Position numbers and translations under genes: made by a program. From contig JAHWKU010000010.1 of NCBI GenBank assembly GCA_019347715.1, positions 10,805 through 74,804 of the forward strand: 64,000 nucleotides of DNA, read 5' to 3'. Below are positions 10,596 to 61,689 of the stretch, in pieces. The stretch's first letter is position 1, and every line of letters starts with the position of its first letter. This DNA is from Actinomycetota bacterium. GTDB taxonomy: Bacteria; Actinomycetota; CADDZG01; JAHWKV01. The notes beneath the pieces were generated by a model that saw nothing but the letters and a program-made list of their open reading frames with translations, made no database searches and was not told the origin of the DNA.

Positions 10596-10626
10596 GGGGG
10601 GCGCGACTCACAGAATTTTCCAGGGA
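10596..10626 (+). repeat. interspersed repeat family A copy (core GGCGCGACTCACAGAATTTTCCAGG)
   Basis: Sits in the 46-bp gmd-epimerase intergenic spacer. Confidence 0.85.
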
Positions 10627-10631
10627 TTCTG

Positions 10632-12513: not shown

Positions 12514-12536
12514 TGAGGGGTCCTTTCCGGCTTCAA

Positions 12537-12567
12537 GTTTTCCAATTTCTGTGAGTCGCGCCCCCCG
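12537..12567 (-). repeat. interspersed repeat family A copy (reverse orientation)
   Basis: ttttccaatttctgtgagtcgcgcccccc, between the DUF3105 gene and fcl. Confidence 0.85.
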
Positions 12568-12570
12568 GGC

Positions 12571-28543: not shown

Positions 28544-28690
28544 CAACCCCGATTGTTCGGTACGAGAATTCGCTTAACTACGCGAGCGGTCACACTCAGC
28601 CACCGTATGGGTAGTTAGGCGCGACCGCCTGTGCCAAACGGCCCACGCGCCCGCCCGTGCCAACCAAAACGGGGCCCCCTAGGGCCCCGT

Positions 28691-28717
28691 CTGGAAAATC
28701 CTGTGAGTCGCGCCTCC
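28691..28717 (-). repeat. interspersed repeat family A copy (reverse orientation) at left edge of AT-richer island
   Basis: ctggaaaatcctgtgagtcgcgcctcc, preceded by the hairpin ggggccccctagggcccc. Confidence 0.85.
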
Positions 28718-28724
28718 TAGTGGG

Positions 28725-29889: not shown

Positions 29890-30606
29890 ATGGGACAGGC
29901 ACGATGTGTGTGCATCATTCCTGCCAGGGGAGGTTCCAAAGGAATCCGGCGAAAGAATCTCGTACCACTACTCGGCGTTCCACTGATTAGTCGGATCGTA
30001 AGAGTGGCTCAAGCCGCTCATTCAATTGAGCAAGTCGTAGTGTCGACAGATGACACCGAGATAGCCTCAGAAGCTGAGAGGTCAGGTGCCCATGTTTTAT
30101 TGCGTCCTTTAGAACTGAGTACTGACGAAGCGAGTTCTGAATCCGTGGTTCTGCACGCGCTCGACCAATTAGAGCGTGAAAATGAATACCTACCAGAATT
30201 GACTGCTTTCGTGCAATGTACGACTCCTCTAACTAAGTCTGAGGACATTGACGGAACCATAAAGATCCTTCTGGATGAGCAGGCGGACTCAGCTTTTACG
30301 GTAAGTCCCTTTTCTGGATTCGTTTGGCGCCAGTCCGAAATGGGCCGATGGATAGGTATGAACCATAGGGTGACAGTCCGTCAACGAAGACAGGACCGCG
30401 AGCCGGAATTCTTAGAAACAGGCGGAGTGTATGTATTCAAGACTAAGGGCTTCCGGCAGCATAAGCATCGCTTCTTCGGAACTATCGCGGCCTATGTCGT
30501 TGAACCCTCTCAAGCCTTAGAGATAGACGACTCCTGGCAACTTGTCCCAGCAGAGGCACTACTTAGATGGCGTGAGCGCGAAGAAGGGCAGCCTAGAGAC
30601 GGTTAA
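29890..30606 (+). CDS. acylneuraminate cytidylyltransferase family (CMP-nonulosonic acid synthetase, NeuA/PseF/LegF-like)
   Basis: 238 aa. CVCIIPARGGSKGIRRKNLVPLLGVPLI is the hallmark CTP_transf_3 N-terminus. Confidence 0.85.
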   Translation: MGQARCVCIIPARGGSKGIRRKNLVPLLGVPLISRIVRVAQAAHSIEQVVVSTDDTEIASEAERSGAHVLLRPLELSTDEASSESVVLHALDQLERENEYLPELTAFVQCTTPLTKSEDIDGTIKILLDEQADSAFTVSPFSGFVWRQSEMGRWIGMNHRVTVRQRRQDREPEFLETGGVYVFKTKGFRQHKHRFFGTIAAYVVEPSQALEIDDSWQLVPAEALLRWREREEGQPRDG

Positions 30607-30850: not shown

Positions 30851-33097
30851 ATGATCATCGAGTCGAATATCTCCAAGTACATCGTCTTCGCCGAGGACGG
30901 TATTGCTCATGCCCTCCGCAAGATGACTCTCAACAGATCTCGCACCGTCTTTTGCGTAGGAGAACATGGAACTCTAGAAGGTGTCCTTACGGACGGAGAT
31001 TTCAGGCGATGGATCGTCGAGGAACCTGAAATTGATCTGGATCAACCCGTGTCTCGGATTGTGAATCGAGAGTTTCGCTCAGCATCAGTGCGAGCCTCCC
31101 CGGACGAGATAAGGGATCTCTTCGATGACGGGGTCACTCTCATACCTCTTACAGATGATCGTAATCGGATAGTCAGCATTGCTTTACGCGCGGCGCGAGC
31201 CATTGAGCTCGGAGACTTTACAATCGGTTCTGACGCTCCCGCATTTGTTATTGCGGAGATTGGAATCAATCACAACGGAAGCATCGAACTCGCTAGGCGA
31301 CTAGTTGACGAGGCGGTCCTCGCCGGAGCCGATTGTGTCAAATTCCAGATGCGTTATTTGCCATCCCTTTATCGCAATTCGGGAGACCCCAATGATCTTC
31401 GAGAGGATCTCGGATCGCAGTACATTCTCGATATTCTCAGCAGATTCTCTCTAAGCAATGATGAGCTTTTTGAAACTTTTGATTACGCGCGTGCCCAAGG
31501 CGTACTGCCGCTCTGCACGCCATGGGACGAACAGAGCGTCTTGGCTTTGGAAAACTATGGTATCGATGGGTACAAGATAGCGTCTGCCGATCTCACTAAT
31601 CACGATCTTCTTCGATTCGTTGCGGCTACCAGGAAACCCATGCTGGTCTCCACTGGAATGTCCACCGAGAACGAGATCAAACAAAGCGTCTCGTTGCTGA
31701 GGGATAATGGAGTAGCCTTCGTTTTACTTCATTGCAACTCCACATATCCCGCTCCTCTGAGAGATATTCATCTGAGCTTCCTGGACGGCCTTGCCGAAAT
31801 CGGGGACTGTCCAGTGGGGTACTCAGGCCATGAGCGAGGAATCGCTGTTCCGGTGGCCGCGGTGGCGCTGGGTGCCCGAGTGATCGAAAAGCATTTCACC
31901 CTCGATAAGACTATGGAAGGTAACGACCATAAGGTCAGTCTTTTGCCCCACGAATTTCGAACGATGGTTGACTCCATTCGGCAAGTCGAAGCCGCGCTAT
32001 CAAAGCAAGGCGAAAGACGGCCCAGTCAGGGCGAGTTCATTAACCGCGAGAATCTTGCCAAAAGTCTTATGGCTACCCGGCAGATAGAAGCAGGAGAGAC
32101 GATTACTGACGAAATGCTCATCTCAAGGAGTCCTGGCCGTGGACTTCAGCCGAACTATCGAAAAGCTCTAGTTGGACGCCCTGCACGTCGCTCGATTAAG
32201 CCGGGAGACTTTTTTTACGGCAGTGACCTCGACGATGTTGGAGTGAAGCCCAGAGCCTATAGATTCAGACGTCCTTGGGGACTGCCCGTTCGGTATCACG
32301 ACTTTCAAAATCTCTTGGGTCAGTCAAACATGGATTTTCTAGAATTCCACCTTAGCTACAAAGACATGGAGCAAGAACCTTCGCGCTTTTTCGATCGGCC
32401 TCTAGACCTGGGTATCACCGTCCACAGCCCTGACCTTTTCTCCGGAGACCACCTCATTGACCTGGCAGCGCGCGATGAAGGCTACCGTCTTCGTTCAGTT
32501 CGAGAACTCCAACGGGTCGTGAACACCACGCGTGAACTGTCCGCCTTTTTCTCCAGGTCGTCCAAGCCACTGATCATTGCGAGTTTGGGCGGATTTACGA
32601 AGGAACATCCCCTCGCCGAAGAGGAGCGTCCCGAGCTTTACGAAATGGTGGCTACAAGTCTGGATGCGCTGGACAAGGACGGGGTCGAAATAGTGCCCCA
32701 GACGGTTCCTCCGTTTCCTTGGTACCTAGGTGGGCAACTCCATTGCAACATCTTCGTTGACCCAGTCGATACGGCGACCTTTTGTGAAACGTACGGTTAC
32801 CGAATTTGCCTCGATCTCTCACACTCGAAACTTGCGACCAACTGCCGGAATGCCTCGTTCAAAGAGTTCGTGGAAGCAGTAGGTCCGTACGTAGCCCATA
32901 TCCATGTTTCCGATGCAGAAGGACTTGATGGCGAGGGCCTCCAGATCGGTATGGGCGAAATCGATTTTGCAGTGGTAGCTGAACAACTCGATGTCCTTGC
33001 TCCGAGTGCAGGGTTCATTCCGGAGGTTTGGCAAGGACATAAGAATGACGGCGAGGGATTCTGGGTTGCGCTCGATCGATTGGAGCGTTGGTTCTAG
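30851..33097 (+). CDS. tri-domain fusion: CBS pair + NeuB-family nonulosonic acid synthase (with SAF domain) + sugar-phosphate isomerase/epimerase-like TIM barrel
   Basis: 748 aa. Residues 1-115 form a CBS-pair-like region (IVFAEDGIAHALRKMTLNRSRTVFCVGEHGTLEGVLTDGDFRRWIV). Residues about 120-470 are NeuB-like (AFVIAEIGINHNGSIELARRLVDEAVLAGADCVKFQ...; SAF-like ITDEMLISRSPGRGLQP). Residues about 480-748 resemble xylose-isomerase-like TIM barrels (HSPDLFSGDHL..., AHIHVSDAEGLDGEG). Confidence 0.75.
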   Translation: MIIESNISKYIVFAEDGIAHALRKMTLNRSRTVFCVGEHGTLEGVLTDGDFRRWIVEEPEIDLDQPVSRIVNREFRSASVRASPDEIRDLFDDGVTLIPLTDDRNRIVSIALRAARAIELGDFTIGSDAPAFVIAEIGINHNGSIELARRLVDEAVLAGADCVKFQMRYLPSLYRNSGDPNDLREDLGSQYILDILSRFSLSNDELFETFDYARAQGVLPLCTPWDEQSVLALENYGIDGYKIASADLTNHDLLRFVAATRKPMLVSTGMSTENEIKQSVSLLRDNGVAFVLLHCNSTYPAPLRDIHLSFLDGLAEIGDCPVGYSGHERGIAVPVAAVALGARVIEKHFTLDKTMEGNDHKVSLLPHEFRTMVDSIRQVEAALSKQGERRPSQGEFINRENLAKSLMATRQIEAGETITDEMLISRSPGRGLQPNYRKALVGRPARRSIKPGDFFYGSDLDDVGVKPRAYRFRRPWGLPVRYHDFQNLLGQSNMDFLEFHLSYKDMEQEPSRFFDRPLDLGITVHSPDLFSGDHLIDLAARDEGYRLRSVRELQRVVNTTRELSAFFSRSSKPLIIASLGGFTKEHPLAEEERPELYEMVATSLDALDKDGVEIVPQTVPPFPWYLGGQLHCNIFVDPVDTATFCETYGYRICLDLSHSKLATNCRNASFKEFVEAVGPYVAHIHVSDAEGLDGEGLQIGMGEIDFAVVAEQLDVLAPSAGFIPEVWQGHKNDGEGFWVALDRLERWF

Positions 33098-33643: not shown

Positions 33644-34777
33644 CTAGATCCGTCTGTGGAACTCGATGAACTCGCCGTTTCCACTATCTGTAGTGAAGCC
33701 ATTCGTCTCAAAGCAACGTCGGGAAGGAAGATTATCGCGGTGAACCTCGGCCTCGAAAAGAGTCACCTGATGATCCTCTTTAAGTTCAGCGACTAGGGCA
33801 GAAATTATTTGTGTCCCATAACCCTTACTTCTCTCCACTTTTTCGACAGAGAATGAGATACGTCCGACCCCAGCTACTACATCGATCCTCACCTGACCTA
33901 TGGGCAAGTCACCAACCATGCCGATCCATATTCTGGTGGCTGGATTCTCCAGTGCTCGCCCGAACCACTCGTGGTGATCTGCAGGATTCACAGCCCGGCC
34001 GGATCGGCTGGTCCTTACGGTCGTGGGGTCATTCCTCATGGCTAGAAGAAATTCTTCGTCAGTAAGTATCGCTGGTCTGAGCCTCAAAGTGTCTTTGGGT
34101 TGATGCCTGATTCCTACTCGTTGGAGGATTTCCAACCAAGTCATTTCAGGGCTGCAACCGAGTCCTTCAACATATTTGCGGATGCGAGCTAAGTCTTCGG
34201 GTGTGTCGATAACCCATCGTTCCTTTCCCAAGAGGTGGCTCGTTCGGAGGTTACGAAGAGTGAAGACTTCAGGGTGACGATATATGTAGGGAGTAACATG
34301 CTCACGTTCCGCAGCCTCTTTAGCCTGGCGATCTGCTTCTCGGAGAGTTGACGCTCTCAGAACTTCAACGTCGAGACCCTTGGGATAAGTTCGAACAAGT
34401 GAGTTGGAGAGATAATCGGCTCCGGATGAGTCAAATCGCTCCACCGCCTCATTTATCAAGCCAGGATCGATGAAGGGACAGTCCCCTGTAACGCGCACTA
34501 CGGTTTCCGCAGGAAAAGCATCCAATACTTCGAGAAATCGATGAAGGACATCCATGCTGTCCCCTCTGACCGCGGGTACGCCGAGACGCTCTGCTTCTTG
34601 CTCGATGGGATCGTCTTCCTTCTCGGAGGAAGTAGCGACCATCACCTTAGCCTTCACTCGCTGAAGGCGCTTCAGGATGAAGGTGAGAACGGTTTCGTCG
34701 CCCAGAGGCATCAGGGTCTTGCCAGGCAGACGTCTGGAACCCATTCGGGCCTGGAGAATGCATATGGTTGCTTTCAA
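33644..34777 (-). CDS. fusion: SpsF/PseF-like cytidylyltransferase-family domain + GNAT N-acetyltransferase (PseH-like)
   Basis: 377 aa. N-terminus ICILQARMGSRRLPGKTLMPLGDETVL is CTP_transf_3/SpsF-like. The C-terminal roughly 150 aa form a GNAT fold (IWIGMVGDLPIGQVRIDVVAGVGRISFSVEKVERSKGYGTQIISALV). Last gene of the pse operon, ATGA-coupled to pseG. Confidence 0.75.
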   Translation of the reverse strand: MKATICILQARMGSRRLPGKTLMPLGDETVLTFILKRLQRVKAKVMVATSSEKEDDPIEQEAERLGVPAVRGDSMDVLHRFLEVLDAFPAETVVRVTGDCPFIDPGLINEAVERFDSSGADYLSNSLVRTYPKGLDVEVLRASTLREADRQAKEAAEREHVTPYIYRHPEVFTLRNLRTSHLLGKERWVIDTPEDLARIRKYVEGLGCSPEMTWLEILQRVGIRHQPKDTLRLRPAILTDEEFLLAMRNDPTTVRTSRSGRAVNPADHHEWFGRALENPATRIWIGMVGDLPIGQVRIDVVAGVGRISFSVEKVERSKGYGTQIISALVAELKEDHQVTLFEAEVHRDNLPSRRCFETNGFTTDSGNGEFIEFHRRI

Positions 34778-35631
34778 CCCGCTTGCGAGAGTAAAAAATC
34801 CGCCACCCTCCTAGGCCCCTTCCCATCAAAAAGACGAATCGCACGATCGCCCAATCGCCTACGAGCATCCTCGTCATCCAGGAGGGCTAGCGTATGATCG
34901 ATCGTCGCTGAAGGGGAGCTTCTGACAATGCATCCTAATCGTGCACAGTGGTCGACAGCTCGCGCCTGATTCTTATGTAGATCGAAAGCGACGGTAGGCC
35001 GGCCTAGAGTGAGCGCCTCGATCATGGTTACCCCTCCGGCGGTGATAACTAGGTCCGAGTGAGAGAGCCATTTCGCTAGACCTTGATCTGTATTGACGAT
35101 TTCCAATTTTGGGAGCAAGAAGCTTGATTCATCCCTGGTGGCTAAGAGCACCCTCAGTTCTGGGGCGCATTCGACTAACTGTCCCGCAATTGCCATACCC
35201 AAGCCGTTATCGGGACCGCCTCCGGTTGCCACCAGAACATTCTTTACATGACTTCCGATGGAGCGTCGCTTCATCAAGGCTAGTTGGGGATCGACAAGGC
35301 TAAACCCCGATCCCCGCAGGATTGAGGGGGATCCCCGAGAGACAATGGTGAGCCCTTCATCAGTTGGTGTCGGATCGACAACGACTTCCACATCAAGACT
35401 GCGTTCCAGATCATCGATCACGCAAGTAATCCTGCTAGCGGGATAGTCGCCGCGTGAGACTGGTCCATAGGTATCGAGCACGATAATCTCTGCCGCAGTT
35501 TGTGTTCCGACCTCGGCGAGATCTATCTCGACTTCCAATGAGGTGAACCCTGCACCCAAGGCCTTCATTCGACTCTGATGACCAAGTCCGGTGGTGGGTC
35601 CGGAGTCGAAGCGAAGGGAAACCCGAGTCAT
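34774..35631 (-). CDS. pseG: UDP-2,4-diacetamido-2,4,6-trideoxy-beta-L-altropyranose hydrolase-like (PseG family, GT28-like)
   Basis: 285 aa. RFDSGPTTGLGHQSRMKALGAGF is the PseG N-terminal Gly-loop. C-terminal GGVTMIEALTLGRPTVAF is typical of GT28 C-domains. ATGA overlaps on both sides. Confidence 0.7.
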   Translation of the reverse strand: MTRVSLRFDSGPTTGLGHQSRMKALGAGFTSLEVEIDLAEVGTQTAAEIIVLDTYGPVSRGDYPASRITCVIDDLERSLDVEVVVDPTPTDEGLTIVSRGSPSILRGSGFSLVDPQLALMKRRSIGSHVKNVLVATGGGPDNGLGMAIAGQLVECAPELRVLLATRDESSFLLPKLEIVNTDQGLAKWLSHSDLVITAGGVTMIEALTLGRPTVAFDLHKNQARAVDHCARLGCIVRSSPSATIDHTLALLDDEDARRRLGDRAIRLFDGKGPRRVADFLLSQAG

Positions 35632-36674
35632 ACCATCTCCCAGGTGATCACTTCGTCCTCTTCGATGTCTCGCTTTGCCCGTCGTCCAACGATGGCGTCG
35701 ATGAAGCGAGGTTTGATCCCGAAGCCTGGCCGCTTGACCGTCAACATGGTCCGGGTTATCGGTGTTCCGGCAGCGATGGTCGCTGCCGCGACGACCGAGC
35801 GCCGCGCCTTCGTATACATCTCCTTCGCCTCTTCCGTGGTAGGACCTGACTTAAGTCCGTCTCCGATGGCCGCCTCAACGTCGTGTATTTGCTGAACGAG
35901 TTCCTTCAGCTGGTGAGGCTCAATGGCGAAGGGATGATCGGGGCCAGGATGGCTTCGGTCGAGCGTGAAGTGCTTCTCGATTATGTGCGCGCCCCTCGCC
36001 GCAGCGGCTACGGGGATATGGGTTCCCAGGCTGTGATCGGAGAGACCCACCGGAACTTTGAATGCAGTCTTCAATGTGTCCATGGCGGCAAGGTTCATGA
36101 TGGAAGCTGGGGCAGGATAGAGGGAGGCACATTGGAGAAGACAAATTTCAGTTGCACCACCTTGTCTGGCTGCATCCATCGCTTCCTCGATCTCGGCGAG
36201 AGTCGCCATCCCGGTCGACAGGATTACCGGCCGAGCCTTCGAGCCAACGTATTCGATGAAAGGCAGGTCCACGATTTCGAAAGAAGCGATCTTAAAGACC
36301 GCAACGCCGAGGGCATCCAGCTCATCAACGGCTTGAAGATCGAACGGACTAGAAAGGAACTCGATGCCAGCTTGGCGTGAGTGATCGGCGAGGAGACTCT
36401 GCCACTCGCGGGGGAGCGAGATATCCTCGAGAAGTTCGTGAGGTTTCTTGGATGAGATGCCCGAAAGGTAGTCGAACTGCGGCGCCTTCGTCGAGTAAAG
36501 GGTCCTACCTGAATAAGTTTGAAACTTGATGGCATCAGCCCCGGCGTCTGCTGCCTCATCGATCAGGCGTTTACTGGTATCCAGGTCCCGGTTGTGGTTG
36601 GATCCCGCCTCCGCAATCACGTAACACGGGTGCCCCTGACCGACCGTCTTCTTCCCGAGCCGGACCGTTGTCAT
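35628..36674 (-). CDS. pseI: pseudaminic acid synthase (NeuB family)
   Basis: 348 aa. CYVIAEAGSNHNRDLDTSKRLIDEAADAGADAIKFQTY, plus the C-terminal SAF/antifreeze-like domain. Sits in a pseB-pseC context. Confidence 0.85.
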   Translation of the reverse strand: MTTVRLGKKTVGQGHPCYVIAEAGSNHNRDLDTSKRLIDEAADAGADAIKFQTYSGRTLYSTKAPQFDYLSGISSKKPHELLEDISLPREWQSLLADHSRQAGIEFLSSPFDLQAVDELDALGVAVFKIASFEIVDLPFIEYVGSKARPVILSTGMATLAEIEEAMDAARQGGATEICLLQCASLYPAPASIMNLAAMDTLKTAFKVPVGLSDHSLGTHIPVAAAARGAHIIEKHFTLDRSHPGPDHPFAIEPHQLKELVQQIHDVEAAIGDGLKSGPTTEEAKEMYTKARRSVVAAATIAAGTPITRTMLTVKRPGFGIKPRFIDAIVGRRAKRDIEEDEVITWEMV

Positions 36675-51342: not shown

Positions 51343-52458
51343 TTGAGGGTTCTACTCACCGTACCTTCGACGCGAATCGACTTCGGAGGACCCTTTGGTA
51401 AGGCTCTCGCTCTGTCGTCCTCGCTCCAGGCATTGGGAGTAGAAGTGATGGTGATGGGAGGCGGACTCGGAGTCGACGGGACGGTAGTTGTGGGGCTGGG
51501 ATCCCTAACCAATTTTCATGGCACACCGATTCCTAGGCAATATCGGCCTTTGCTCCGTGAGATCGAGAGAGCCCAAGTGCTGCATGTGTTGGGCTTCAGG
51601 GACCCTGTGGGTACTCTAGCCATGATCAAGGCTTCCATGAGTTCGGTTCCTCGGATACTGGAACCTTGTGGAATGCATCGTCGAAGGTTGCGTAGTGAGA
51701 CACTCAAAACCATTTTTGATCGGAGTTTGGGGAATCATCTTGTCTCCCGAAGCGCCCGACTGATTGCCACGTCTTCCCTTGAGAGCAAGGAGCTCCAGGC
51801 CGATGGAGTTGAAGAGGAAATGATTACTGTTCGTCCGAACGGGATTGATGCTGATTCATCTACCCCAGTGCACCGAAAGGAAGAGTTTCGTGAGCAGATG
51901 GACATCTTCTCCAAGCTCCCGCTCGTTCTTTCCTTAGGGCGGATTACGCGCAAGAAATCCCTCGAACATTTGCTCCTGGCCCTCACAAGAGCCCCGGACC
52001 TGGGGGCCCTGATCGTCGGGCCGGACAGCCATGATGGGACGCTGGCAAGGCTACAGGAGATGCGTACGAACCTGGGGCTTGAAGATCGGGTTTTTATTCG
52101 CGCGAGAGGCGTTTGGGGAGACGAGAAAGCACTAGCCTTGGCCTCCTCCGACCTCTTTTGCCTCCCTTCAGAGACAGAGAACTTCGGGACGGCAGCAGCT
52201 GAAGCGGCAGGAGCGGGCCTTCCGGTTATTGTCTCAGACCGGTGTGGCGTCGCTGAATATTTACCGAGGGACTCGACGAGAGTAATTCGATTCGGGGACA
52301 TTGATGGTTTGGCAATTGCTTTAAGTGATATGAGTGGCCCACGAGCCAAGATGCTGGCTGAAGCTGGAAGCAAGCAGGTGCAAGAGGATTTGGATTGGGA
52401 TGTTCTCGCTAAAGCGCAGTTGGAGATTTATCAGGATGTCCTCCGAAAAACCTTCTGA
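51343..52458 (+). CDS. GT4-family glycosyltransferase
   Basis: 371 aa. CLPSETENFGTAAAEAAGAGLPVIVSDRCG. Confidence 0.8.
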   Translation: MRVLLTVPSTRIDFGGPFGKALALSSSLQALGVEVMVMGGGLGVDGTVVVGLGSLTNFHGTPIPRQYRPLLREIERAQVLHVLGFRDPVGTLAMIKASMSSVPRILEPCGMHRRRLRSETLKTIFDRSLGNHLVSRSARLIATSSLESKELQADGVEEEMITVRPNGIDADSSTPVHRKEEFREQMDIFSKLPLVLSLGRITRKKSLEHLLLALTRAPDLGALIVGPDSHDGTLARLQEMRTNLGLEDRVFIRARGVWGDEKALALASSDLFCLPSETENFGTAAAEAAGAGLPVIVSDRCGVAEYLPRDSTRVIRFGDIDGLAIALSDMSGPRAKMLAEAGSKQVQEDLDWDVLAKAQLEIYQDVLRKTF

Positions 52459-53644
52459 TGAGAGAAGAGGGAACCCTGAGGTTCTGATTGTCAATCAATA
52501 TTTTCCCCCGGACAGCTCAGCCACGGCTGGTGTTTTTGGGGAGATCGCTGGCTTTCTGTCGAGGGCAGGCTATTCGGTTACAACTTTGAGCGGGCATCCC
52601 TCTTACTCCCCGCAAGAAAAGATTCGTTGGAAGCCGTTTAGCAGAAGAGTTACGTCGCTCGGCATAGTTGAGCGTGTTGGGTCGTTTGCGAGTTCTCGCA
52701 ATTCCAATTTCGGGAGAGCAACTAACTATATTTCCTATCTTGTCCTGGCGAGCCTGCGGGGTGCGCTCCGGCGTCGAGCTGACGTCGTTATCGTTGGGAG
52801 TGATCCTCCGATGGCCATAGGAGCGGCTCTCATTGCTGCGAAGGGACGACCAGTCATTTACACAATCCAGGATCTTCATCCTGACCTGGGCCTAGCATCG
52901 GGCTGGATCCGCGATGGATTCTTGAGTCGAGCCTGGCAAAGTCTGCACACGATGGCTATGAGAAAGGCAACAACAGTGGTGTGCTTGGGTGAAGCGATGG
53001 CTCAACGAATATTGGATAAGGGAGTCGACCCGAGGAAAGTAATAGTGATTCCTCATGGTTCTCCGTCAAAGGTTGGCGCACCCGAGAGGGCGATAGTGGA
53101 GGAGTTGAGGCAGGGTGCCGGTTTCGTGGTTGCGCATGCCGGAAATATCGGATGGGGCGGAGCGTGGGAAACGATCATCGATGCCGCCAAGATGCTGAAT
53201 GGAGAGGCATCGTTCTTATTTATTGGTGAAGGAGTGAAAGCCGACCAGGTGGTTAACTCCGGCCAGCGAGTTCTTCCGTTCCGACCCCCATCGGAAATCG
53301 GATCCGTGATGCATGCCGGCGATCTCCAGCTAGTCACTATCCGTCCAGGTGCCGAAGGCCTGGTAGTTCCCAGCAAGATGTATTCGATCCTGGCTCATGG
53401 TCGCCCCATCCTTGCCGTGGCACCTCCCACCAGCGAGGTAGCGCTGCTGGCTCAGAAAGGTGTGGGTATCGTCGCGGATCCATTTGATCCCCATGACATC
53501 GTGGACAAGATACGGTGGGCCAAGGCCCATCCGGAGAAGCTTGCAGAGATGGGCAAAAGAGCCAGAATTTTGGCATCTGAGGTTAAAAGAGACGATCAGT
53601 TGAAGAAACTGGTCTCGTTGGTAGAGGGGTTCGCCGCCAATTGA
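52435..53644 (+). CDS. GT4-family glycosyltransferase (WcaI-like)
   Basis: Track ORF 52334..53644. ATG at 52435 gives MSSEKPSDERRGNPEVLIVNQYFPPDSSATAGV, typical of WcaI-like GT4, with a 24-nt overlap on the upstream gene. Confidence 0.8.
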
Positions 53645-55377
53645 TCTTAGGTATCAACGCTTACCACGGTGATTCCTCGGCTGCTCTTTTCTCCGATGGC
53701 CGATGTATCGCCGCGGTTGAACAAGAGCGCTTTTCTCGGCTGAAGCACCATGCTGGTTTCCCGGATCTTGCGATCCAAGAGTGCCTCGAGATGGTTGTTG
53801 CCGGGCCTGAAGCTATAGAGCACATCGCCATAGGGCGCGATCCGTCAGCTCATTTTCACAACAAAGTCCTATTTGGACTGAAGCGAGTCTCCTCCATGAA
53901 GGAGATGCTCGGGGCCCGTCTGGCCAATGCTGCCAAAGTTCTGGATAACAAGGATTCAGTGGCGACAGCTCTAGGAGTCAATGCCAAAGATCTTCAGGCC
54001 AAGAACCATCGTGTGGAACATCACCGCGCTCACCTAGCGAGTGCTCTTTTTTGCTCACCCTTCGAAGATGCAGTTTGCCTCTCGGTTGACGGGATGGGGG
54101 ATTTTGCCTCGACCATGTGGGGCAGGGGAGCTGGTTCCAAGATCGATGTCGACGGCCAAGTGCTGTATCCGCACTCTCTCGGCATTTTCTATACGGCTCT
54201 CACGCAGTTCGTTGGGCTTCCGAGCTATGGCGATGAATACAAGTTGATGGGACTCTCGGCGTACGGGGAGCCGCGCTTCCTGACCCAGATGCGAGATGTC
54301 GTGCGGTTGGGAGAAGGCCTGAATGTTGAGCTGAACCTCGATTACTTCGTCCACGACAAAGAGGGCGTCGAGATGACTTGGGAACAGGGGACTCCCGAAA
54401 TCGCTCCTCTTTGGTCAAAGAAGATGGAAGAGGTTTTCGGTGCAGCACGTGCTTACCGGGGGGACGTTACGGAGAGGGATAAGGATCTGGCCGCAAGCGT
54501 TCAGGCACGACTGGAGGAGATCGTTCTCGAGATGCTGCGGCGTCTATATAAAAGGACGGGGACCCCTCGCCTCGTGATGGCCGGAGGAGTGGCGCTCAAT
54601 TGTGTGGTGAATGGCATGATTCGAAGCGAGACGCCGTTCGAGGAAGTGTGGATTCAGCCCGCCGCTAACGATGCCGGGATCTCCATCGGAGCAGGTCTTT
54701 GGGTTCAGCACCAGATCTTGGGCCAAGAGCGTTCGTGGGTGATGGATCACGCCTTGCTCGGCCCCGAGTTCTCGGACACCGACTACGAGATGGCTCTGGA
54801 AGGGCTTGATGTTCCCTATCTCTCGCTTGATGACGAGAAGCTGGTGGATGAGGCAGCCAAGCGGATCGCCGACGGAAAGATCGTCGGGTGGTTCCAGGGG
54901 AAGATGGAATTTGGTCCCCGTGCTCTTGGGAATCGCTCGATCGTTTGCGATCCCAGACGTCACGACATGAAGGACATCTTGAACTCCCGCATCAAATATC
55001 GGGAGCCGTTCCGGCCGTTCGCGCCTTCGATTCTCCAGGAGAAGACCGGCGAGTGGTTTACCCAAGACTACCCATCGCCGTTCATGCTGATGGCTTACGA
55101 GGTGAGACCCGAGAAGAAAGACGAGATCCCTGCCGTCACCCACGAGGATGGAACTGGGCGACTTCAAACCGTCGATTCGTCTACCAACCCGAGATACCAT
55201 GGGTTGATCTCCGCCTTCGAGAGACTTACGGGAGTGCCCGTGGTTCTGAACACTTCGTTCAACGAGAACGAACCGATCTGCTGTACGCCCGCGGAAGCCA
55301 TCGACTGCTTTCAGAGGACGCAGATGGATACTCTTGTGCTCGGCAACTTCATCGTCGATAAGAGGATCTCCCGATGA
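53641..55377 (+). CDS. carbamoyltransferase (NodU/CmcH family)
   Basis: 578 aa. MILGINAYHGDSSAALFSDGRCIAAVEQERFSRLKHHAGFP and HHRAHLASA (YrdC/Kae1-like fold) are characteristic. Confidence 0.9.
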   Translation: MILGINAYHGDSSAALFSDGRCIAAVEQERFSRLKHHAGFPDLAIQECLEMVVAGPEAIEHIAIGRDPSAHFHNKVLFGLKRVSSMKEMLGARLANAAKVLDNKDSVATALGVNAKDLQAKNHRVEHHRAHLASALFCSPFEDAVCLSVDGMGDFASTMWGRGAGSKIDVDGQVLYPHSLGIFYTALTQFVGLPSYGDEYKLMGLSAYGEPRFLTQMRDVVRLGEGLNVELNLDYFVHDKEGVEMTWEQGTPEIAPLWSKKMEEVFGAARAYRGDVTERDKDLAASVQARLEEIVLEMLRRLYKRTGTPRLVMAGGVALNCVVNGMIRSETPFEEVWIQPAANDAGISIGAGLWVQHQILGQERSWVMDHALLGPEFSDTDYEMALEGLDVPYLSLDDEKLVDEAAKRIADGKIVGWFQGKMEFGPRALGNRSIVCDPRRHDMKDILNSRIKYREPFRPFAPSILQEKTGEWFTQDYPSPFMLMAYEVRPEKKDEIPAVTHEDGTGRLQTVDSSTNPRYHGLISAFERLTGVPVVLNTSFNENEPICCTPAEAIDCFQRTQMDTLVLGNFIVDKRISR

Positions 55378-55416
55378 GCTTTCCCACTGCCTGGCAGTCT
55401 GGCTTCCAGATGGTTC

Positions 55417-56547
55417 ATGCAGTCTGGCAAAAAGGGCCACCGGCGCTGGACCTGGTGGAGATGCAACATCCTCAATATGAATGCCGCGGGCCTAGAGTTG
55501 CGGCTTTCCTCCCAACAGCTCTGTGGCTGGCGCAGTAAAGATTCGGTAGTGATGCAATCATGGGTTGAGGACACCCTGGCATGCCCCCGTGATGGCGTAT
55601 CTCTAAGTCTGAAGGGAGATGTGCTCAAATGCCCCGAGGGTCATGAATACCCCCTCATCCTGGGCGTTCCGGTGATGCTGATCGATGAGGCGCCTCCTAC
55701 GCATGGGGCCATTAGGGAAACCTTGAATCAGGTGACGGGCGAGCTTGGCTATCCCGAGATTGGGGACCCCCAAGAAACACGGCAGTTTGTACAAGACATG
55801 TTGGGCGCAACCTGTGGACACATGTATCAGCATGTCAAGTCCTTACAGGACTATCCGATCCCTCGGTTCCCCCTTTCTCCTGAGTTCGCGGGAGCCACGC
55901 TCATAGACATCGGCTCAAATTGGGGAAGGTGGTCGTTCTCAGCCGCTCGGAAGGGATTCAGAGTTGTGGCGGTAGATCCTTCCTTAAGGAGTGCCCTGGC
56001 GGGCAAGGAGATAGCGCGCCAGATAGGTCTTCCGGTTTCGTTTATCGTTGGAGATGCCCGATTCTTGCCCTTCAAATCTCGAACTTTTGATGTTGCATTC
56101 TCATATTCCGTTCTTCAGCACTTCAGTAAGAGTGATGCTCAGCTGGCGATAGACGAGGCCTCTAGAGTTCTGAGGCCGGACCGGACCATCTTGGTTCAGA
56201 TGGCGAACGGACGGGGACTCAGGCAACTCTTTAACCGGTTGAGACAGCAGGTAAAGGCGGATACCAATCCCTTCCGAGTTCGGTACTGGACCATCCGCGA
56301 GCTAAACGCTGTATTCGAACAAATAGGGAAGACTTCGATTTCAGCAGATGGTTACCTATCATTGAATGCTCAAATCTCGGATATTGACATCTTGCCTAGA
56401 AGATATGGATTCCTAATCCGGTTTTCTGAAGCTCTGAAAGGAGTTGCCGCGAGGAGGCCGATCCTAACGGAATTCGCCGATAGCCTATGGGTAATGTCCA
56501 GGAAGAGAGCGCAGGATGGCACCCCGGGCAGCCCGCCTGAGACCTAA
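55417..56547 (+). CDS. class I SAM-dependent methyltransferase with N-terminal Trm112-like zinc-ribbon domain
   Basis: Start uncertain (an alternative Met is near 55547). LACPRDGVSLSLKGDVLKCPEGHEYPLILGVPVML is Trm112/DUF343-like. The MT fold is TLIDIGSNWGRWSFSAARKGFRVVAVDPS. Confidence 0.75.
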   Translation: MQSGKKGHRRWTWWRCNILNMNAAGLELRLSSQQLCGWRSKDSVVMQSWVEDTLACPRDGVSLSLKGDVLKCPEGHEYPLILGVPVMLIDEAPPTHGAIRETLNQVTGELGYPEIGDPQETRQFVQDMLGATCGHMYQHVKSLQDYPIPRFPLSPEFAGATLIDIGSNWGRWSFSAARKGFRVVAVDPSLRSALAGKEIARQIGLPVSFIVGDARFLPFKSRTFDVAFSYSVLQHFSKSDAQLAIDEASRVLRPDRTILVQMANGRGLRQLFNRLRQQVKADTNPFRVRYWTIRELNAVFEQIGKTSISADGYLSLNAQISDIDILPRRYGFLIRFSEALKGVAARRPILTEFADSLWVMSRKRAQDGTPGSPPET

Positions 56548-56589
56548 ATTAACTGGGAGTCTGGATGAGGTCGCTGCGGTAGGAGCCTC

Positions 56590-56794
56590 GGGGGGGTGTC
56601 ATCGGCTCTTGCCGGGATACCATGGGTTCTTTCACATTCGAGAGACTAACGGGAGTGCCCGTGGTACTGAACACTTCGTTCAATGAGAATGAGCCCATCT
56701 GGTGCACGCCTGCGGAAGCCATCGACTGCTTTCAAAGGACGCAGATGGATTCTTTGGTGCTCGGGAACTTCATCGTCGACAAGACGAACTCCTG
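56590..56794 (+). pseudogene. 3' fragment of a carbamoyltransferase gene (duplicate of 55175-55377 region)
   Basis: About 87 percent nucleotide identity to the 3' end of 53641..55377 by my manual alignment. The frame is intact over the last 55 codons (FERLTGVPVVLNTSFNENEPIWCTPAEAIDCFQRTQMDSLVLGNFIVDKTNS*). Upstream of that it is degenerate and shifted. It ends in the same TGATGAGCTTT stop/start junction. Confidence 0.7.
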
Positions 56795-59695
56795 ATGAGC
56801 TTTGCTCCCGAGTGGTATCCCTTCGCGGGGTTTCTCATCGCCCTCGGAGCGGGTCTCCTTCTCATGCCGATCACGATCGCGTTGGCAAGGAAGTTCGGTT
56901 TTGTTGTTCGGCCTCGTCTGTTCAAGAGGGGGCGAAGGAGGTCCATCTCATATCTCGGCGGGATCGCAGTGGCCGCCTCGACACTGCTCGGCTTCGGCGT
57001 CCTCGGGGAGGCCAGCGAGATCTTCTACTTTCTTCTGGCGGGGCTGTTGCTCATGGTTATCGGGTTTGTCGATGACCGCTCGGGCGGCAAGGTGCCGGCG
57101 TGGGTGAGGCTCGTTGCGCAAATTCTCGTAGCCACGCTGGTTGCGGTCTATCTCTACGAAGGAAGCCTGGCCAAGGCGCTCTTCGAGATCTTTTTGATCG
57201 TGGCGGTGACCAATGCCTTCAATCTCCTCGACAACATGGACGGCGTGGCCGGCACGACCGCCTTCGCGACGGCCTCGAGCATTTCGTTTCTCGCCATGGT
57301 CGGAGGAAGGCCGAACATAGCTCTCACCGCGGCCTGTCTGGCCGGCGCATCGATCGCATTTCTCCGTCACAACTTTCGATCCGCTACGAGCTATCTCGGA
57401 AACGGCGGTTCTCTTTTCATCGGGTTTCTGATTGCTGCCCTTGCGGTCAACACCGGGCTCCCCCTTGGTACCGGGTGGGAGCTGGTGGGGGCCGTGTTGT
57501 TACTGGCCGTTCCCACCACCGACATGTTCGTCGTGACGATCGCTCGATTCATTCATCGAAAGAGACTGTCCCACGGCGGAGTCGATCACGTCTCTCATCG
57601 ACTGGTGAGGATGGGACTCAGCAGCAGGATGGCAGCACTGCTTCACGGGCTGGCTGCGCTGGTTGCAGGGGCCATGGCGTACCTGGCGAGCAACTTCGCG
57701 CAGCCGGAGATTCTCGTCGGCGCCGTGGCGGCGTTCGCGCTAGCCGGCATCGTATTACTGAGCGTGCGGGTGTATGCGGAACCAAAGTCGTGGCTTAGGA
57801 CCGCCGCTTTGGCTGTCTCGGTTACGTTGCTGGGCTTTGTTCTGATGGCCGTTGCCCCGACGCTCTCGGCCGCGTCCGACCTTCATTCCTCGCGCGCTCA
57901 TTTCGAAAAGGGCCTGGACGCGTTCATGGCCTTTCAGTCCCAAAAAGCGGCGGCGGAGTTCAAGTCCGCGGGGGAGTCTGCTCGCAGAGCTGAGGAGACT
58001 CTGGGATCGTTCTTCACGGTTCCCGCCAGAGCGCTTCCGATCGCAGGACCGAACCTTCGGCTCGCTCGAGATCTCGCCGAAGCTGCAGACCTCCTGACGC
58101 CTGCGGCACTGGCAGGTGTTGAAGCCTTATCGGCCTTCCCTCGCGACGCACAGAATCGACCGGTCATCGGGCTCGTGGAGGGCCGCATCCAGTACGCGGG
58201 ATGGGTGCATGCCAAGGACTATTTCGATCAGGCGGCATCGGCTGTGCGACTCGCCCTGGTGAAGGCCAATGCAGAAAGAGGATTCGTTCTTCCTCCTTTG
58301 TCCAGTGCCAGAGCCGACTTCGTGACCAAAGGAAACGAGCTGCTGCGAACGCTCGAAGGGGCTTCGGGGCTGGCTGAGATCTTGCCTCTCATCTCGGGAG
58401 CGGATGGGCCCAAGACCTGGTTTCTCGCCATCCAGAATCCGGTCGAACTCCGTGCAACCGGAGGATTTCTTGGGGCGTTCGGATTGCTCTCGGCAGATGC
58501 CGGAAAGATCAGTCTTCTGCGCCTCGACTCCAACCTCTCTCTTCCGCCTCTTCCTCAGGACGTCGGGCCTGAGGCCGTGCATGCTCGCTACGACCGGTTC
58601 GCCTCCAACCGGATGTGGCAAAACGTGAACATGACGCCGGACTTCCCGACCGCGGCCCAGCAGATGATGGCGATGTGGGAAGCGCAGTCGGGACAGAAGG
58701 TGGATGGAGTGGTCGCCATCGACGCGGTCGGCCTGAGCCATCTCTTAGAGGTCGTCGGGCCGGTGGCAACAGAGGACTTCGGGATGATCGATTCCGAGAA
58801 CTTCTCGCGGGTCACTCTGAACGAGGCCTACACCCGCTTTCCGGAAAAGGCTGAGAGGGCCGACGTGCTGCTGTCGGTTGGAGCCGCGGCATGGTCGAGG
58901 CTTCTGTCCGGAACCTTCGAAAACCCATTAGAGCTGAGGCCGCTCGCCAAGGCGGTTGCCGAGCGACACGTCTTCGCGTGGAGTCCCCTAAATCCTTCCG
59001 CCTTTTCAAAGGCGAAAGCTTCCGGTGCTCTAAGGGAGCCCCAAGACAACGAAGACTTCCTCATGGTCGTGGGGCAAAACGCTGCTGCCAACAAGATCGA
59101 TTACTACATGAAAAGAACCATTAATTATCAAGTGAAACTTTTGCCCGAGGGCCGTTCTGAATCCGATCTCCAGGTCGCCATCGCCAACACCGCTCCCAAG
59201 TCTGGATTGGTGAAATACATCGCCGGCCCTTACCTGCCGACCGATCCCGCCGGGCTGAATCGTTCCTACACCTCTGTTTATGTTCCTTTGAACCGTGGCG
59301 TGATATCCGCTCAGGTGAATGGTGAAGCAGCCGGCGTGGAGAGCCATCAGGAAAAAGGACTGGCGGTGTTCTCGAATCACCTGGAAGCTCTGCCGGGAGA
59401 GACTTCCGCTATGCATCTGTCATTGGCCGGCGGAGTTCATCGACCCGGCGAATACGTGCTTCACGTTCAAAAGCAGCCAACTCTTCGCGCAGACGACTTC
59501 ACGGTCGAGGTGACGATCCCATCGGGAATGGTTGTCACCGGGATGACCTCGGGGATGACTATTGAAGGAGACAATGTGCGCTGGAACGGCACGCTCGACA
59601 CCGACAAGAAGTTCGTCGTTCGTTATGGAAACTCTCTGGTGGACCGTATCAAGAGCTTCATCCAGTCGGATTCGGATCTCGCGATCTCGGCTTGA
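56795..59695 (+). CDS. fusion: WecA/MraY-family polyprenyl-phosphate HexNAc-1-P transferase + DUF4012 domain
   Basis: Track ORF 56702..59695. ATG at 56795 (MSFAPEWYPFAGFLIALGAG...). N-terminal about 330 aa are polytopic with NAFNLLDNMDGVAG. The C-terminal about 630 aa carry the DUF4012 signature LAIQNPVELRATGGFLGAFGLL. Confidence 0.8.
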   Translation: MSFAPEWYPFAGFLIALGAGLLLMPITIALARKFGFVVRPRLFKRGRRRSISYLGGIAVAASTLLGFGVLGEASEIFYFLLAGLLLMVIGFVDDRSGGKVPAWVRLVAQILVATLVAVYLYEGSLAKALFEIFLIVAVTNAFNLLDNMDGVAGTTAFATASSISFLAMVGGRPNIALTAACLAGASIAFLRHNFRSATSYLGNGGSLFIGFLIAALAVNTGLPLGTGWELVGAVLLLAVPTTDMFVVTIARFIHRKRLSHGGVDHVSHRLVRMGLSSRMAALLHGLAALVAGAMAYLASNFAQPEILVGAVAAFALAGIVLLSVRVYAEPKSWLRTAALAVSVTLLGFVLMAVAPTLSAASDLHSSRAHFEKGLDAFMAFQSQKAAAEFKSAGESARRAEETLGSFFTVPARALPIAGPNLRLARDLAEAADLLTPAALAGVEALSAFPRDAQNRPVIGLVEGRIQYAGWVHAKDYFDQAASAVRLALVKANAERGFVLPPLSSARADFVTKGNELLRTLEGASGLAEILPLISGADGPKTWFLAIQNPVELRATGGFLGAFGLLSADAGKISLLRLDSNLSLPPLPQDVGPEAVHARYDRFASNRMWQNVNMTPDFPTAAQQMMAMWEAQSGQKVDGVVAIDAVGLSHLLEVVGPVATEDFGMIDSENFSRVTLNEAYTRFPEKAERADVLLSVGAAAWSRLLSGTFENPLELRPLAKAVAERHVFAWSPLNPSAFSKAKASGALREPQDNEDFLMVVGQNAAANKIDYYMKRTINYQVKLLPEGRSESDLQVAIANTAPKSGLVKYIAGPYLPTDPAGLNRSYTSVYVPLNRGVISAQVNGEAAGVESHQEKGLAVFSNHLEALPGETSAMHLSLAGGVHRPGEYVLHVQKQPTLRADDFTVEVTIPSGMVVTGMTSGMTIEGDNVRWNGTLDTDKKFVVRYGNSLVDRIKSFIQSDSDLAISA

Positions 59696-61689
59696 AACGG
59701 AGAACCCTTCTCCTCGTTTCTTCGGCTCTTGCTTTTTTAATCCTGCCGACACTCGTTTCTGTAGCTCTCGCGCGGGGCCATCTGGTTAGCGCGGAGCAAT
59801 ATCTCCTGCGAGCGAAAGGAAATCTGAAGGCATTTGATTTGCCAGCAGCGGAAAGTGATCTCAAGGCCGCCGACGCTTCACTACGCAGGGGAGAGCGGCT
59901 TGTCGACTCTCCGATCAACTTCGGAGGACTGTTGGTTCCCATCGTGAGTGAGAACCTGACGGTACTTCGAGCGATTGCGGACTCGTCAGGTGAAGCAATT
60001 GCCGCCGGCCAATCTGCAATCGCGGTTCTGAATGCCTTCCCTCGTCAGGAAGGGCGATTGGTCGCACCGTGGAGAGAGGGGGCGGTGAACCTCGAGCCTT
60101 TCAGGCACCTCGAGGCCGAGACTTCATTCATGCGAAGCCGAGTGGAAGCCGCGGCCGCCAGGATGTCGAACACCTCGCCCGATCTCCTTTTGCCGGCCAT
60201 GTCCCGTGCCCGTAGTCGACTCACCAGCGAGCTGGTTGTCGCGCGTGCTCAGGCCAGAGCAGCTACGGGGGCAGCCTTTCTCATCCCGAGAATGCTGGGC
60301 GACGAAGGAGCGCGCAGATGGATCATCGGTGCCGAGAACATTGCGGAACTGAGAGGGCGAGGAGGCTACGTTGGTTCATTCGGCGTCCTCGAGACGACGA
60401 AAGGTCGCATGGCCCTCGGCGATTTTGTCCCGGTCGCAGATCTTCCTGCCTTGTCTTCCGAGTTGAGACGCAATCCCGACGTGCCGCCGGAATACCGGGA
60501 GCACTACGCCGAGATCGGAGGGCTGGACGCCTGGCCCAACCTTTTCATGAGTCCCAGCTTTCCTTCCGGAGCATCTTTGTTCGCAAGGCAATTGAAGAAT
60601 CAGGTGGGAATCTCATCGGATGGTGTGATCTCAATCGATCCTATTGGGCTCTCATACCTCATGGAAGTGACCGGACCCGTGACGGTCGAGGGATTCCCCG
60701 AACCCCTCACTTCAGAAAATGTCGTTGAGTGGTCGCTCAGCCGCCTGTATTCCGATCTCGAGCAAGATCAGGACGCACGCCGCGAGCAATCATCGAAGAT
60801 CGCGGAGGCGGTATGGCGTCAGCTGACGACGGCAAGGTCGCTGGACTCGCGCAAGCTCTCTGAAGCGTTCGGACGTGCCCTCGCCGAACGCAGAATGGTC
60901 TTGTGGTCAAAGGAATCTCGGGAGCAGAGCGAAATCGAGAAGCTGGGGATTGGTGGGACCATCTCACAATCGCCTGGGGATTATTTGATGCTTGTCAGTC
61001 AGAACTTCGGTGAGAACAAGCTCGATTACTACCTGGAACGCAGCATCGAACTGACCGGCCGGATCCGCTCCGATGGGAGCCTGCTCGCGGAGACGAAAGT
61101 GACGGTGACGAACACCGCCTCCACGGATGTTGATCTTCCGGGAGCGGTTGGAGGGGAGCGGCCCCGGCTCGACCTGGCCTCCGGCACCGCGCGCAGCTTC
61201 CTAAAGCTTTTCGTCCACCAGAATGCTGTGCTCACCGAAGTTCTGAAAGATGGAGAGCCGACCACCGACTTCGAAAACTCCCCCGAACTCGGAAAGAGGC
61301 GATTCGCGGTCTACGCCGAAGTTGCTCCTCGAGAAACCCAGGAGTTTCGGTTCCGCTATCTCGTTCCCGACATACTCGACGAAGAAGGCTACGACCTCAC
61401 GGTGCAGTCCCAGTCGACGGTGCGTCCCGATCGCCTAAGGGTGGATCTGGAATTGCCGGCGGGGGCGAGGCTCAGTCCCTCTGGTACTCAGCGGATCCAA
61501 TGGAGCGAGGCCCTTACTGCGGATAAGACGCTGCACGCCAGCATCGATCGAACCGTTCCCATGAGAATCGCCGGCATCGCGGCAGGATTGGGGTCCTCAC
61601 AGTTGTGGCTTGCTCTCGGCCTGGGCGTCGTGCTGACTTTGGTGGGGATCTCGTTGAGGTTTCGGTTATCGAACAGAGAAATTCCGTAG
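59692..61689 (+). CDS. DUF4012 domain protein (membrane-anchored, extracytoplasmic)
   Basis: 665 aa. N-terminal signal/TM, DUF4012 signature IGAENIAELRGRGGYVGSFGVL, C-terminal TM helix. Paralogous to the C-terminal part of the preceding fusion. Confidence 0.8.
   Translation: MKRRTLLLVSSALAFLILPTLVSVALARGHLVSAEQYLLRAKGNLKAFDLPAAESDLKAADASLRRGERLVDSPINFGGLLVPIVSENLTVLRAIADSSGEAIAAGQSAIAVLNAFPRQEGRLVAPWREGAVNLEPFRHLEAETSFMRSRVEAAAARMSNTSPDLLLPAMSRARSRLTSELVVARAQARAATGAAFLIPRMLGDEGARRWIIGAENIAELRGRGGYVGSFGVLETTKGRMALGDFVPVADLPALSSELRRNPDVPPEYREHYAEIGGLDAWPNLFMSPSFPSGASLFARQLKNQVGISSDGVISIDPIGLSYLMEVTGPVTVEGFPEPLTSENVVEWSLSRLYSDLEQDQDARREQSSKIAEAVWRQLTTARSLDSRKLSEAFGRALAERRMVLWSKESREQSEIEKLGIGGTISQSPGDYLMLVSQNFGENKLDYYLERSIELTGRIRSDGSLLAETKVTVTNTASTDVDLPGAVGGERPRLDLASGTARSFLKLFVHQNAVLTEVLKDGEPTTDFENSPELGKRRFAVYAEVAPRETQEFRFRYLVPDILDEEGYDLTVQSQSTVRPDRLRVDLELPAGARLSPSGTQRIQWSEALTADKTLHASIDRTVPMRIAGIAAGLGSSQLWLALGLGVVLTLVGISLRFRLSNREIP

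Follow-up and report, generated by a model that had tools for sequence, protein, structure and literature searches.

Why does the 3′ end of a carbamoyltransferase gene occur twice, on either side of a methyltransferase gene, within a surface-glycan cluster of an uncultured actinobacterium? The DNA that we analyzed, here called the window, is a 64-kb stretch of a metagenome-assembled Actinobacteria contig, a source indicated by the MAG names attached to the database proteins P0121 and P0241. The window contains an intact carbamoyltransferase gene (CT), a methyltransferase gene (MT) and a gene for a WecA-like protein fused to DUF4012 (wecA-DUF4012, or wecA for short), and the repeated sequence spans the junction between the first and the last of these; its upstream occurrence is referred to as copy A and its downstream occurrence as copy B. 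The features of the locus are collected in Table 1.

Table 1. Features of the carbamoyltransferase–WecA region and their positions in the window.
Feature	Positions	Strand	Description and basis
CT	53641..55377	+	Intact O-carbamoyltransferase gene of the NodU/CmcH/TobZ type, 578 aa; Pfam, structure alignments
Copy A	55189..55385	+	Last ~187 nt of CT, stop codon and first ~10 nt (ATGAGCTTT) of a wecA-type start
54-codon ORF	55374..55538	+	First three codons from the wecA start, rest in inserted DNA; no Pfam match
Inserted segment	55386..56611	+	~1227 nt (~1.23 kb), missing from all relatives that have the CT–wecA junction (blastn against L003, L004, L007 and L008)
12-nt direct match	55391..55402	+	CTGGCAGTCTGG against 56553-56564 (CTGGGAGTCTGG), 11/12 identical, near the other end of the insert
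MT	55552..56547	+	Class I SAM-dependent methyltransferase gene, 331 aa; Pfam Methyltransf_25/11/31/23/12
Copy B	56612..56806	+	CT 3′-end relic, 5′-truncated and frameshifted, followed by the real wecA-DUF4012 start
57-codon ORF	56622..56795	+	Predicted ORF within the relic; ATG put in frame by a 2-nt deletion
wecA-DUF4012	56795..59695	+	WecA-like (Glycos_transf_4) and DUF4012 fusion gene, 966 aa; Pfam; true start ATG at 56795

The genes of the locus

The low-GC stretch at ~29-57 kb of the window is a surface-glycan cluster that encodes nonulosonic-acid synthesis, Wzm, Wzt with a Wzt_C domain, a GT2, several GT4s and a Wzy-like protein. The CT product carries the Pfam domains Carbam_trans_N (8e-57) and Carbam_trans_C (8e-74), and its entire sequence aligns collinearly with the solved structures of TobZ, NovN and GdmN, residues 9-573 of TobZ aligning with residues 2-575 of CT (E = 1e-78). 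Against the NCBIfam equivalog for NodU it scores 173 bits, far under the cut-off of 1000 bits, and CT is therefore not NodU itself. Its closest homologue is P0001 from L003/L004, with 94% amino acid identity.

The product of wecA-DUF4012 is 100% identical to P0241, a 966-aa protein from an NCBI MAG; the WecA-like protein falls under the cut-off of NCBIfam ECA_wecA, and its N-terminus is collinear with those of the products from L003, L007 and L008. The 25 nt that precede the ATG of wecA contain no Shine-Dalgarno-like motif. Exact-protein look-ups of the CT, wecA-DUF4012 and MT products of the window returned no record. A scan of genome contigs with wecA-DUF4012 yielded relatives of 29-32% only, and two scans of metagenomes with DNA patterns for close CT 3′ ends yielded only the distant contig L010 (67.5%).

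The duplicated junction

A repeat search across the 64-kb window revealed one long direct repeat, 55216-55382 against 56637-56803 (167 nt, 89% identity, spacing 1421). Once a 2-nt indel is allowed, the aligned homology reaches in the 5′ direction to 55189/56612, and with a 3′ limit at ~55385/56806 it comes to ~196 nt in total. The ungapped part of the two copies is identical at 150 of 170 nt, the overall identity is 88-89%, and the longest identical run measures 23 nt. When the translated copy B was compared with a profile of 121 carbamoyltransferases, it matched with E = 6.7e-28, at profile positions 525-576 only. The repeat of the CT 3′ end that the preliminary description had reported is thus real, and the fragment does, as had been proposed, represent what is left of a carbamoyltransferase 3′ end; the limits of 56590-56794 that had been given for it lie ~20 nt too far to the left at the start and fall ~12 nt short at the end.

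The two copies have the 10-nt junction string GATGAGCTTT in common. The stop/start context is CGA-TGA in copy A and TGA-TGA in copy B, and the exact repetition of the stop/start junction described before consequently holds for the 10-nt string but not for the context around it. Likewise, the fragment had been said to be still in frame, which is the case from 56637 on, while the first 25 nt of copy B are thrown out of frame by a 2-nt deletion at ~56629. The signs of decay in copy B are confined to these 5′ 25 nt, with the deletion and clustered substitutions, and to one Cys-to-Trp change. Upstream of 56612, CT homology was supported neither by the carbamoyltransferase profile search nor by a shuffle test (p = 0.31), and an extension of the relic to ~56537-56562 (DE.xAV...RL...P.YHG), which had looked suggestive by eye, was rejected.

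Two short ORFs accompany the copies. The stop codon of the predicted 57-codon ORF (TGA, 56793-56795) shares one base with the wecA ATG. The 54-codon ORF behind CT resembles wecA only in its first three codons and in a Trp at codon 7, and no similarity was seen past ~55385-55394; a short ORF after CT had earlier been taken for the matching remnant of a wecA-like start, a reading that this comparison contradicts. Judged from its sequence, it probably arose by chance, extends into the inserted DNA and is not a gene.

The uninterrupted arrangement in relatives

In five independent relatives (L003/L004, L007, L008, L011 and L012), CT runs straight into wecA-DUF4012 with overlapping stop and start codons, and neither MT nor a second junction copy is present in any of the five. 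An empty site therefore exists, and because the same arrangement recurs in all of these relatives the overlapping CT–wecA junction is ancestral and deeply conserved. An intact CT directly upstream of wecA-DUF4012 is what the preliminary description had suggested looking for in relatives. Around the junction, L003/L004 show ~86-89% nucleotide identity to the window: positions 8759-11744 of L003 align to 52396-55384 of the window (86.4%) and positions 11549-12606 to 56612-57667 (88.7%), and one 196-nt stretch of L003 matches both junction copies, the alignment with copy A covering the single junction copy of L003 at 11549-11744. The same holds for L007 (~79% at the nucleotide level) and L008 (~71%), in which a single stretch likewise corresponds to copy A and to copy B, and CT is directly followed by wecA. 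In these empty-site alignments the relatives cover the window from 52396 or 53641 to 55384 and then continue directly from 56612 onward. The more distant L011 and L012 (CT 65-67%, wecA 34-44% amino acid identity) also have the two genes overlapping, and L009, with a wecA-DUF4012 of 63% identity, carries another gene upstream, not CT. Among the relatives found, the window is the only case of an interrupted CT–wecA junction. MT is inserted between CT and wecA, and it is flanked there by a complete CT end on one side and a truncated relic on the other. CT and wecA-DUF4012 make up an overlapping pair that is conserved throughout a broad clade of actinobacteria.

The reverse polarity was also considered, in which the two junction copies would have recombined in L003 with loss of MT; the 5′ part of the L003 sequence is A-like and much of the rest B-like. 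This scenario is less parsimonious, given that four more distant relatives lack MT as well and that the states common to copy B and L003 are synonymous in 6 of 7 cases.

The comparison with L003 also bears on the extent of the foreign DNA. The order of the genes upstream is the same in L003, the closest relative, and in the window (GT2, GT4s, Wzy, GT4, GT4, CT). Protein identity to L003 amounts to 86% for the GT4 at 52439, 94% for CT and 91% for wecA, and to only 38-60% for the genes farther upstream; synonymous divergence from L003 drops from 0.75 to ~0.3 over the first ~80 codons of the GT4 at 52439. The boundary of the divergent portion of the cluster is therefore located at ~52.4-52.7 kb and not at the repeat. 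This is at odds with the earlier proposal that the fragment marks the right boundary of an island, as is the finding that the window has only ~1227 nt more than its relatives. An island that comprises the entire low-GC cluster, ends on the right with CT and, on recombining in, truncated a resident CT to leave the relic as its right boundary would agree with the rise in GC content from ~0.55 to ~0.60 just to the right of the relic, with the resemblance of the relic to a once-functional allele, and with the adjacency of CT and wecA in relatives. We nevertheless regard such an island as improbable, since the cluster stands in the same order in L003 with its divergent block ending at ~52.5 kb, CT is no more foreign than wecA when compared with L003 (pS 0.41 vs 0.32) and has a GC3 like that of wecA, and just 1.23 kb are extra in comparison with the relatives. 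On these alignments, CT and wecA lie together in the block shared with L003, and what the scar encloses is the insertion of one gene; it does not mark the edge of a large island.

The inserted segment

MT is the sole gene of the insert. Its product is 100% identical to P0121, a 331-aa NCBI MAG annotation, and the next relatives (67% and 64% identity) are found in AsnB-MT-GT4 contexts on contigs L006 and L005. In L005 the gene is located between an asparagine-synthase-like gene and a GT4, and in L006 it is likewise located between two other genes. Nucleotide homology to these relatives is limited to 55549-56515 and does not go past the gene borders; no second occurrence of this element with these ends was found in other genomes or at other sites, the MT relatives of 64-67% lying in other contexts. 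The GC3 of MT is 0.575, similar to that of the low-GC genes, compared to 0.65 for CT and 0.69 for wecA.

The remainder of the insert offered few further features. Its left 174 nt gave no match to an Rfam family and no unusual RNA fold (z = 0.0), no promoter- or terminator-like sites were found on the + strand, and when the flanks of the insert (55378-55560 and 56500-56640) were compared with wecA, CT and the neighbors of MT in L005 and L006, no significant similarity emerged. Terminal inverted repeats were not detected at the ends of the insert, the best inverted match being 6 nt and no better than in shuffled sequences, and neither the ORFs nor the Pfam search revealed an integrase, recombinase or transposase in the insert. 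The 11/12 match between CTGGCAGTCTGG and CTGGGAGTCTGG is possibly due to chance; by our own estimate, ~0.02 such matches would be expected.

Direct repeats of target sequence around an inserted segment recall the target-site duplications of transposons and IS elements. An insertion of this type was rejected, as the repeats here are 196 nt long and 11% diverged instead of 2-15 nt and identical, and inverted repeats and a transposase are lacking. Integration of the prophage type was rejected as well, with no integrase or recombinase in the insert and the element not seen elsewhere, and so was a simple tandem duplication, with 1227 nt of unrelated DNA between the copies.

With a MAG contig as source, an assembly artefact has to be weighed, namely a chimera of two co-occurring strains in which the second junction copy comes from a molecule of the other strain. 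The two copies do differ by an amount typical of strains or species, and the arrangement was found on no other database contig. However, assembler chimeras switch within shared sequence, and here both joints abut DNA that has no homologue at the other copy, which makes a chimera unlikely. Real molecules would have to hold both the junction of the wecA start with the insert and that of the insert with CT codon 517, each with MT-flanking DNA, and the 2-nt deletion and additional changes at the 5′ edge of copy B are typical of a real decaying relic. We therefore give an artefact very little weight.

History of the relic

A codon walk through the last 54 codons shows that copies A and B differ by 12 synonymous and 5 non-synonymous changes. 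The Nei-Gojobori estimates over 52 codons are pS 0.34, pN 0.041, dS 0.46 and dN 0.042, corresponding to a dN/dS of ~0.09, and the neutral chance of at least 12 synonymous changes among 17 is 3e-5 to 3e-4 over a range of transition bias (~1e-4). The mostly synonymous differences noted in the preliminary description, and the signature of purifying selection read from them, are thereby confirmed. The changes found on copy B only are 4 synonymous to 1 non-synonymous (p ~0.01-0.02), and those on copy B or common to copy B and L003 are synonymous in 10 of 12 cases (p ~1e-5 to 1e-4). With a pS of 0.34, the two copies have diverged to a degree similar to that seen between the window and L003, for which pS is 0.41 in CT and 0.32 in wecA.

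Polarizing these differences with L007 and L008 as outgroups is noisy, as both are near synonymous saturation (pS 0.65-0.74) and ~156 in-frame sites are informative. With this limit, 7 apparently derived states are common to copy B and L003, 4 to copies A and B, and none to copy A and L003; when only sites at which both outgroups agree are taken, the counts are 4 for copy B and L003 vs 3 for copies A and B. At the 3′ end, ATGAGCTTT is exactly common to copies A and B, and L003 has ATGAGGCTT, which points to some common history or to gene conversion in this part. No clear step in the divergence from L003 was observed across the junction.

The simplest model is an in-place duplicative insertion in one step, in which template switching or the repair of staggered breaks, for example, brought in the MT segment and copied the 196-nt junction from the same chromosome, and the copies diverged afterwards. 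It would account for the identity of GATGAGCTTT in both copies together with 3-4 apparently derived sites that they share against L003, and for the fact that both flanks are about equally far from L003. A non-coding relic, however, should change at random, in contrast to the 4 to 1 ratio of synonymous to non-synonymous changes on copy B only and to the 12 of 17 between the copies (p ~1e-4). From the synonymous branch of copy B we estimate that ~14 non-synonymous changes would be expected, compared to the 1-2 seen, and more derived states are common to copy B and L003 than to copies A and B. In our assessment an in-place duplication is unlikely, though it keeps some weight.

With a dS of ~0.46, copies A and B are as far apart as orthologues of different species, and nearly all of their differences are synonymous, which suggests that for most of the time since the two separated the relic was part of an intact CT. 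On the pattern of substitutions, the relic probably derives from a second CT allele that was intact until fairly recently, and not from an in-place duplicate that drifted. Such an origin would mean that two versions of the locus, already diverged, recombined with each other and that the MT segment was joined without homology at either end. No donor, intermediate or second genome with this arrangement was found in the genome, protein and metagenome DNA-pattern searches.

Origin of the arrangement

We consider it fairly probable that the locus was assembled by recombination between two diverged versions of it, with the MT segment bracketed by the junction copies. The ancestral state is the CT–wecA pair with its overlapping stop and start codons. 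Homologous exchange would have taken place on the outside, and illegitimate joints would have formed at the two borders of the MT segment, ~55385 and ~56611. As reconstructed here, the process would resemble homology-facilitated illegitimate recombination, a term used in PMC6382021, and would probably have required two steps. In the window, the upstream copy completes a full-length CT, and the downstream relic preserves the native context before wecA, the stop/start overlap included.

In homology-facilitated illegitimate recombination, foreign DNA is joined via homology on one side and through a non-homologous joint on the other, and truncated genes are left behind. The present case differs in that at least two such joints would be needed; as the process at work here it is plausible.

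Gene remnants also occur at recombination junctions in O-antigen and capsule loci. The likeness lies in a truncated cluster gene beside a conserved flanking gene, with the uninterrupted arrangement in relatives, and in a low-GC locus whose order is kept in L003 while its upstream genes have diverged to 38-60% identity behind a clear similarity step. The differences are that the scar described here encloses one modifying gene inside the conserved right-hand block instead of lying at the boundary of the divergent region, and that its host is an uncultured actinobacterium. Of a gene-remnant scar we find both the truncated homologous copy, matching beyond chance, and the empty site in relatives. 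The arrangement is an ordinary recombination product: events of this kind are known, and the locus has clearly diverged between relatives.

A further parallel is provided by icd and icdC, which flank e14 in E. coli K-12 according to a passage in PMC13626634 that cites Hill, Gray and Brody 1989. In the same source, e14 is described as a 15-kb prophage that excises under SOS induction, and the differences between icd and icdC as synonymous icd changes plus two conservative substitutions (PMC13626634). In both systems an intact gene stands at one end of the insert and a pseudogene made of its C-terminal fragment at the other; the direct repeats are of the 3′ end of the target gene, one copy completing the gene and one being displaced, and if the insert were lost, the gene would be restored as a chimera that is probably functional. 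The insert of the window differs from e14 in its size of 1.2 kb, in consisting of one methyltransferase gene, and in having no recombinase and no recognizable att core.

In principle, recombination between copies A and B could delete MT and restore a chimeric CT, comparable to what happens with icd and icdC on excision of e14 (PMC13626634).

Possible roles of the relic

It is conceivable that the relic has been kept for a function, either because the 57-codon ORF feeds ribosomes to wecA or because the repeats permit RecA-mediated precise loss of MT. In line with this, the stop codon of CT and the start codon of wecA overlap in each of the five relatives, the region in front of the wecA ATG is devoid of a Shine-Dalgarno-like motif, the 2-nt deletion creates the in-frame ATG at 56622, the copies retain an identical run of 23 nt, and icd/icdC offer a precedent (PMC13626634). 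Coupling, however, requires translation and not a conserved amino acid sequence, a 57-aa piece of Carbam_trans_C would be unlikely to fold by itself, and at 89% identity with runs of no more than 23 nt a homologous deletion would be rare. Retention for function thus appears most improbable to us, slightly more so than an assembly artefact. That the relic acts as a leader ORF coupling wecA-DUF4012, or that the 196-nt repeats serve as a low-frequency switch deleting MT and restoring a chimeric CT, or both, is a speculative proposal that we hold to be improbable; if true, the switch would toggle surface-glycan methylation.

Implications for the glycan operon

Because CT and wecA overlap and the wecA start is preceded by no Shine-Dalgarno-like motif, a clean insertion between them would damage one gene or uncouple the other. 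With the junction duplicated, CT would stay complete and wecA would retain its native context. As read from the sequence, a glycan-modifying methyltransferase was likely added to the operon without destroying CT and without uncoupling wecA from upstream translation. The locus provides a dated, base-level example of the way in which a surface-glycan operon acquires a modifying enzyme, here by the insertion of one gene into a tightly coupled pair, and the CT/WecA-DUF4012 unit may help to annotate these poorly known loci.

Conservation of the carbamoyltransferase and WecA-like/DUF4012 gene pair

The carbamoyltransferase stop codon overlapped the start of the WecA-like/DUF4012 gene in all relatives' contigs examined (L003, L007, L008, L011, and L012), and this stop/start overlap was kept even where the downstream protein was only 34–44% identical. 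The two genes form a deeply conserved pair and are probably translationally coupled. In the window, a second DUF4012 protein of 665 amino acids is encoded at 59692–61689; since the start of its gene overlaps the stop of the WecA-like/DUF4012 fusion by 4 nt, the two constitute a tandem pair of DUF4012 genes.

Reading frame and ends of the inserted segment

The intact carbamoyltransferase gene is one codon longer in the window because copy A, the first of two copies of its 3' end, carries CGA at the position of the stop codon in copy B (the truncated relic), in L003, the closest relative, and in L007. A single TGA (55375–55377) and 58 sense codons separate this gene from the class I SAM-dependent methyltransferase gene, both lying in the same reading frame (55372–55552). 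It is plausible that the frame is shared by chance, with an estimated probability of a few per cent.

Near each of its ends, the inserted segment that carries the methyltransferase gene contains one half of a direct match of 11 out of 12 nucleotides (55391–55402, CTGGCAGTCTGG; 56553–56564, CTGGGAGTCTGG), for which we estimate a chance expectation of ∼0.02. Nucleotide homology of the methyltransferase gene to its nearest relatives ends ∼11 codons short of the stop codon (56511–56547), so the C-terminal tail (…RAQDGTPGSPPET) may have arisen as novel sequence at or near the right-hand joint of the segment.

Similarity step, dispersed repeats and nonulosonic acid genes

Similarity to L003 changes sharply within the 5' end of a GT4 gene (∼52396–52700), with protein identities of 38–60% upstream versus 86–94% downstream and a drop in pS from 0.75 to ∼0.3. 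Judged from this pattern, the region is likely a recombination breakpoint bordering the section of the surface-glycan gene cluster that has diverged from L003.

A family of ∼51-nt repeats with the common core GG(A/G)GGCGCGACTCACAG(A/G)AT is dispersed in the higher-GC part of the window. Two of the copies share 98% identity, and the family looks like a REP/MITE-like element.

The window contains two NeuB-family genes (30851–33097 and 35628–36674), one of which encodes a 748-amino acid fusion of NeuB, SAF, and xylose isomerase-like TIM-barrel domains, with a CBS match that falls below the Pfam threshold. Together with two cytidylyltransferases, these genes suggest two nonulosonic acid branches in the cluster.

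Positions of gene overlaps, repeats and cytidylyltransferase genes
Feature	Sequence	Position	Strand
Carbamoyltransferase stop/WecA-like-DUF4012 start overlap	L003	11731–11736	
Carbamoyltransferase stop/WecA-like-DUF4012 start overlap	L007	2211–2216	
Carbamoyltransferase stop/WecA-like-DUF4012 start overlap	L008	3076–3079	
Carbamoyltransferase stop/WecA-like-DUF4012 start overlap	L011	1934–1937	
Carbamoyltransferase stop/WecA-like-DUF4012 start overlap	L012	5293–5296	
∼51-nt repeat copies	Window	10597–10647, 17383–17433, 17422–17472, 18596–18646, 21006–21056, 24829–24879	+
∼51-nt repeat, inverted copy	Window	28670–28724	
Cytidylyltransferase	Window	29890–30606	
Cytidylyltransferase fused to GNAT domain	Window	33644–34777
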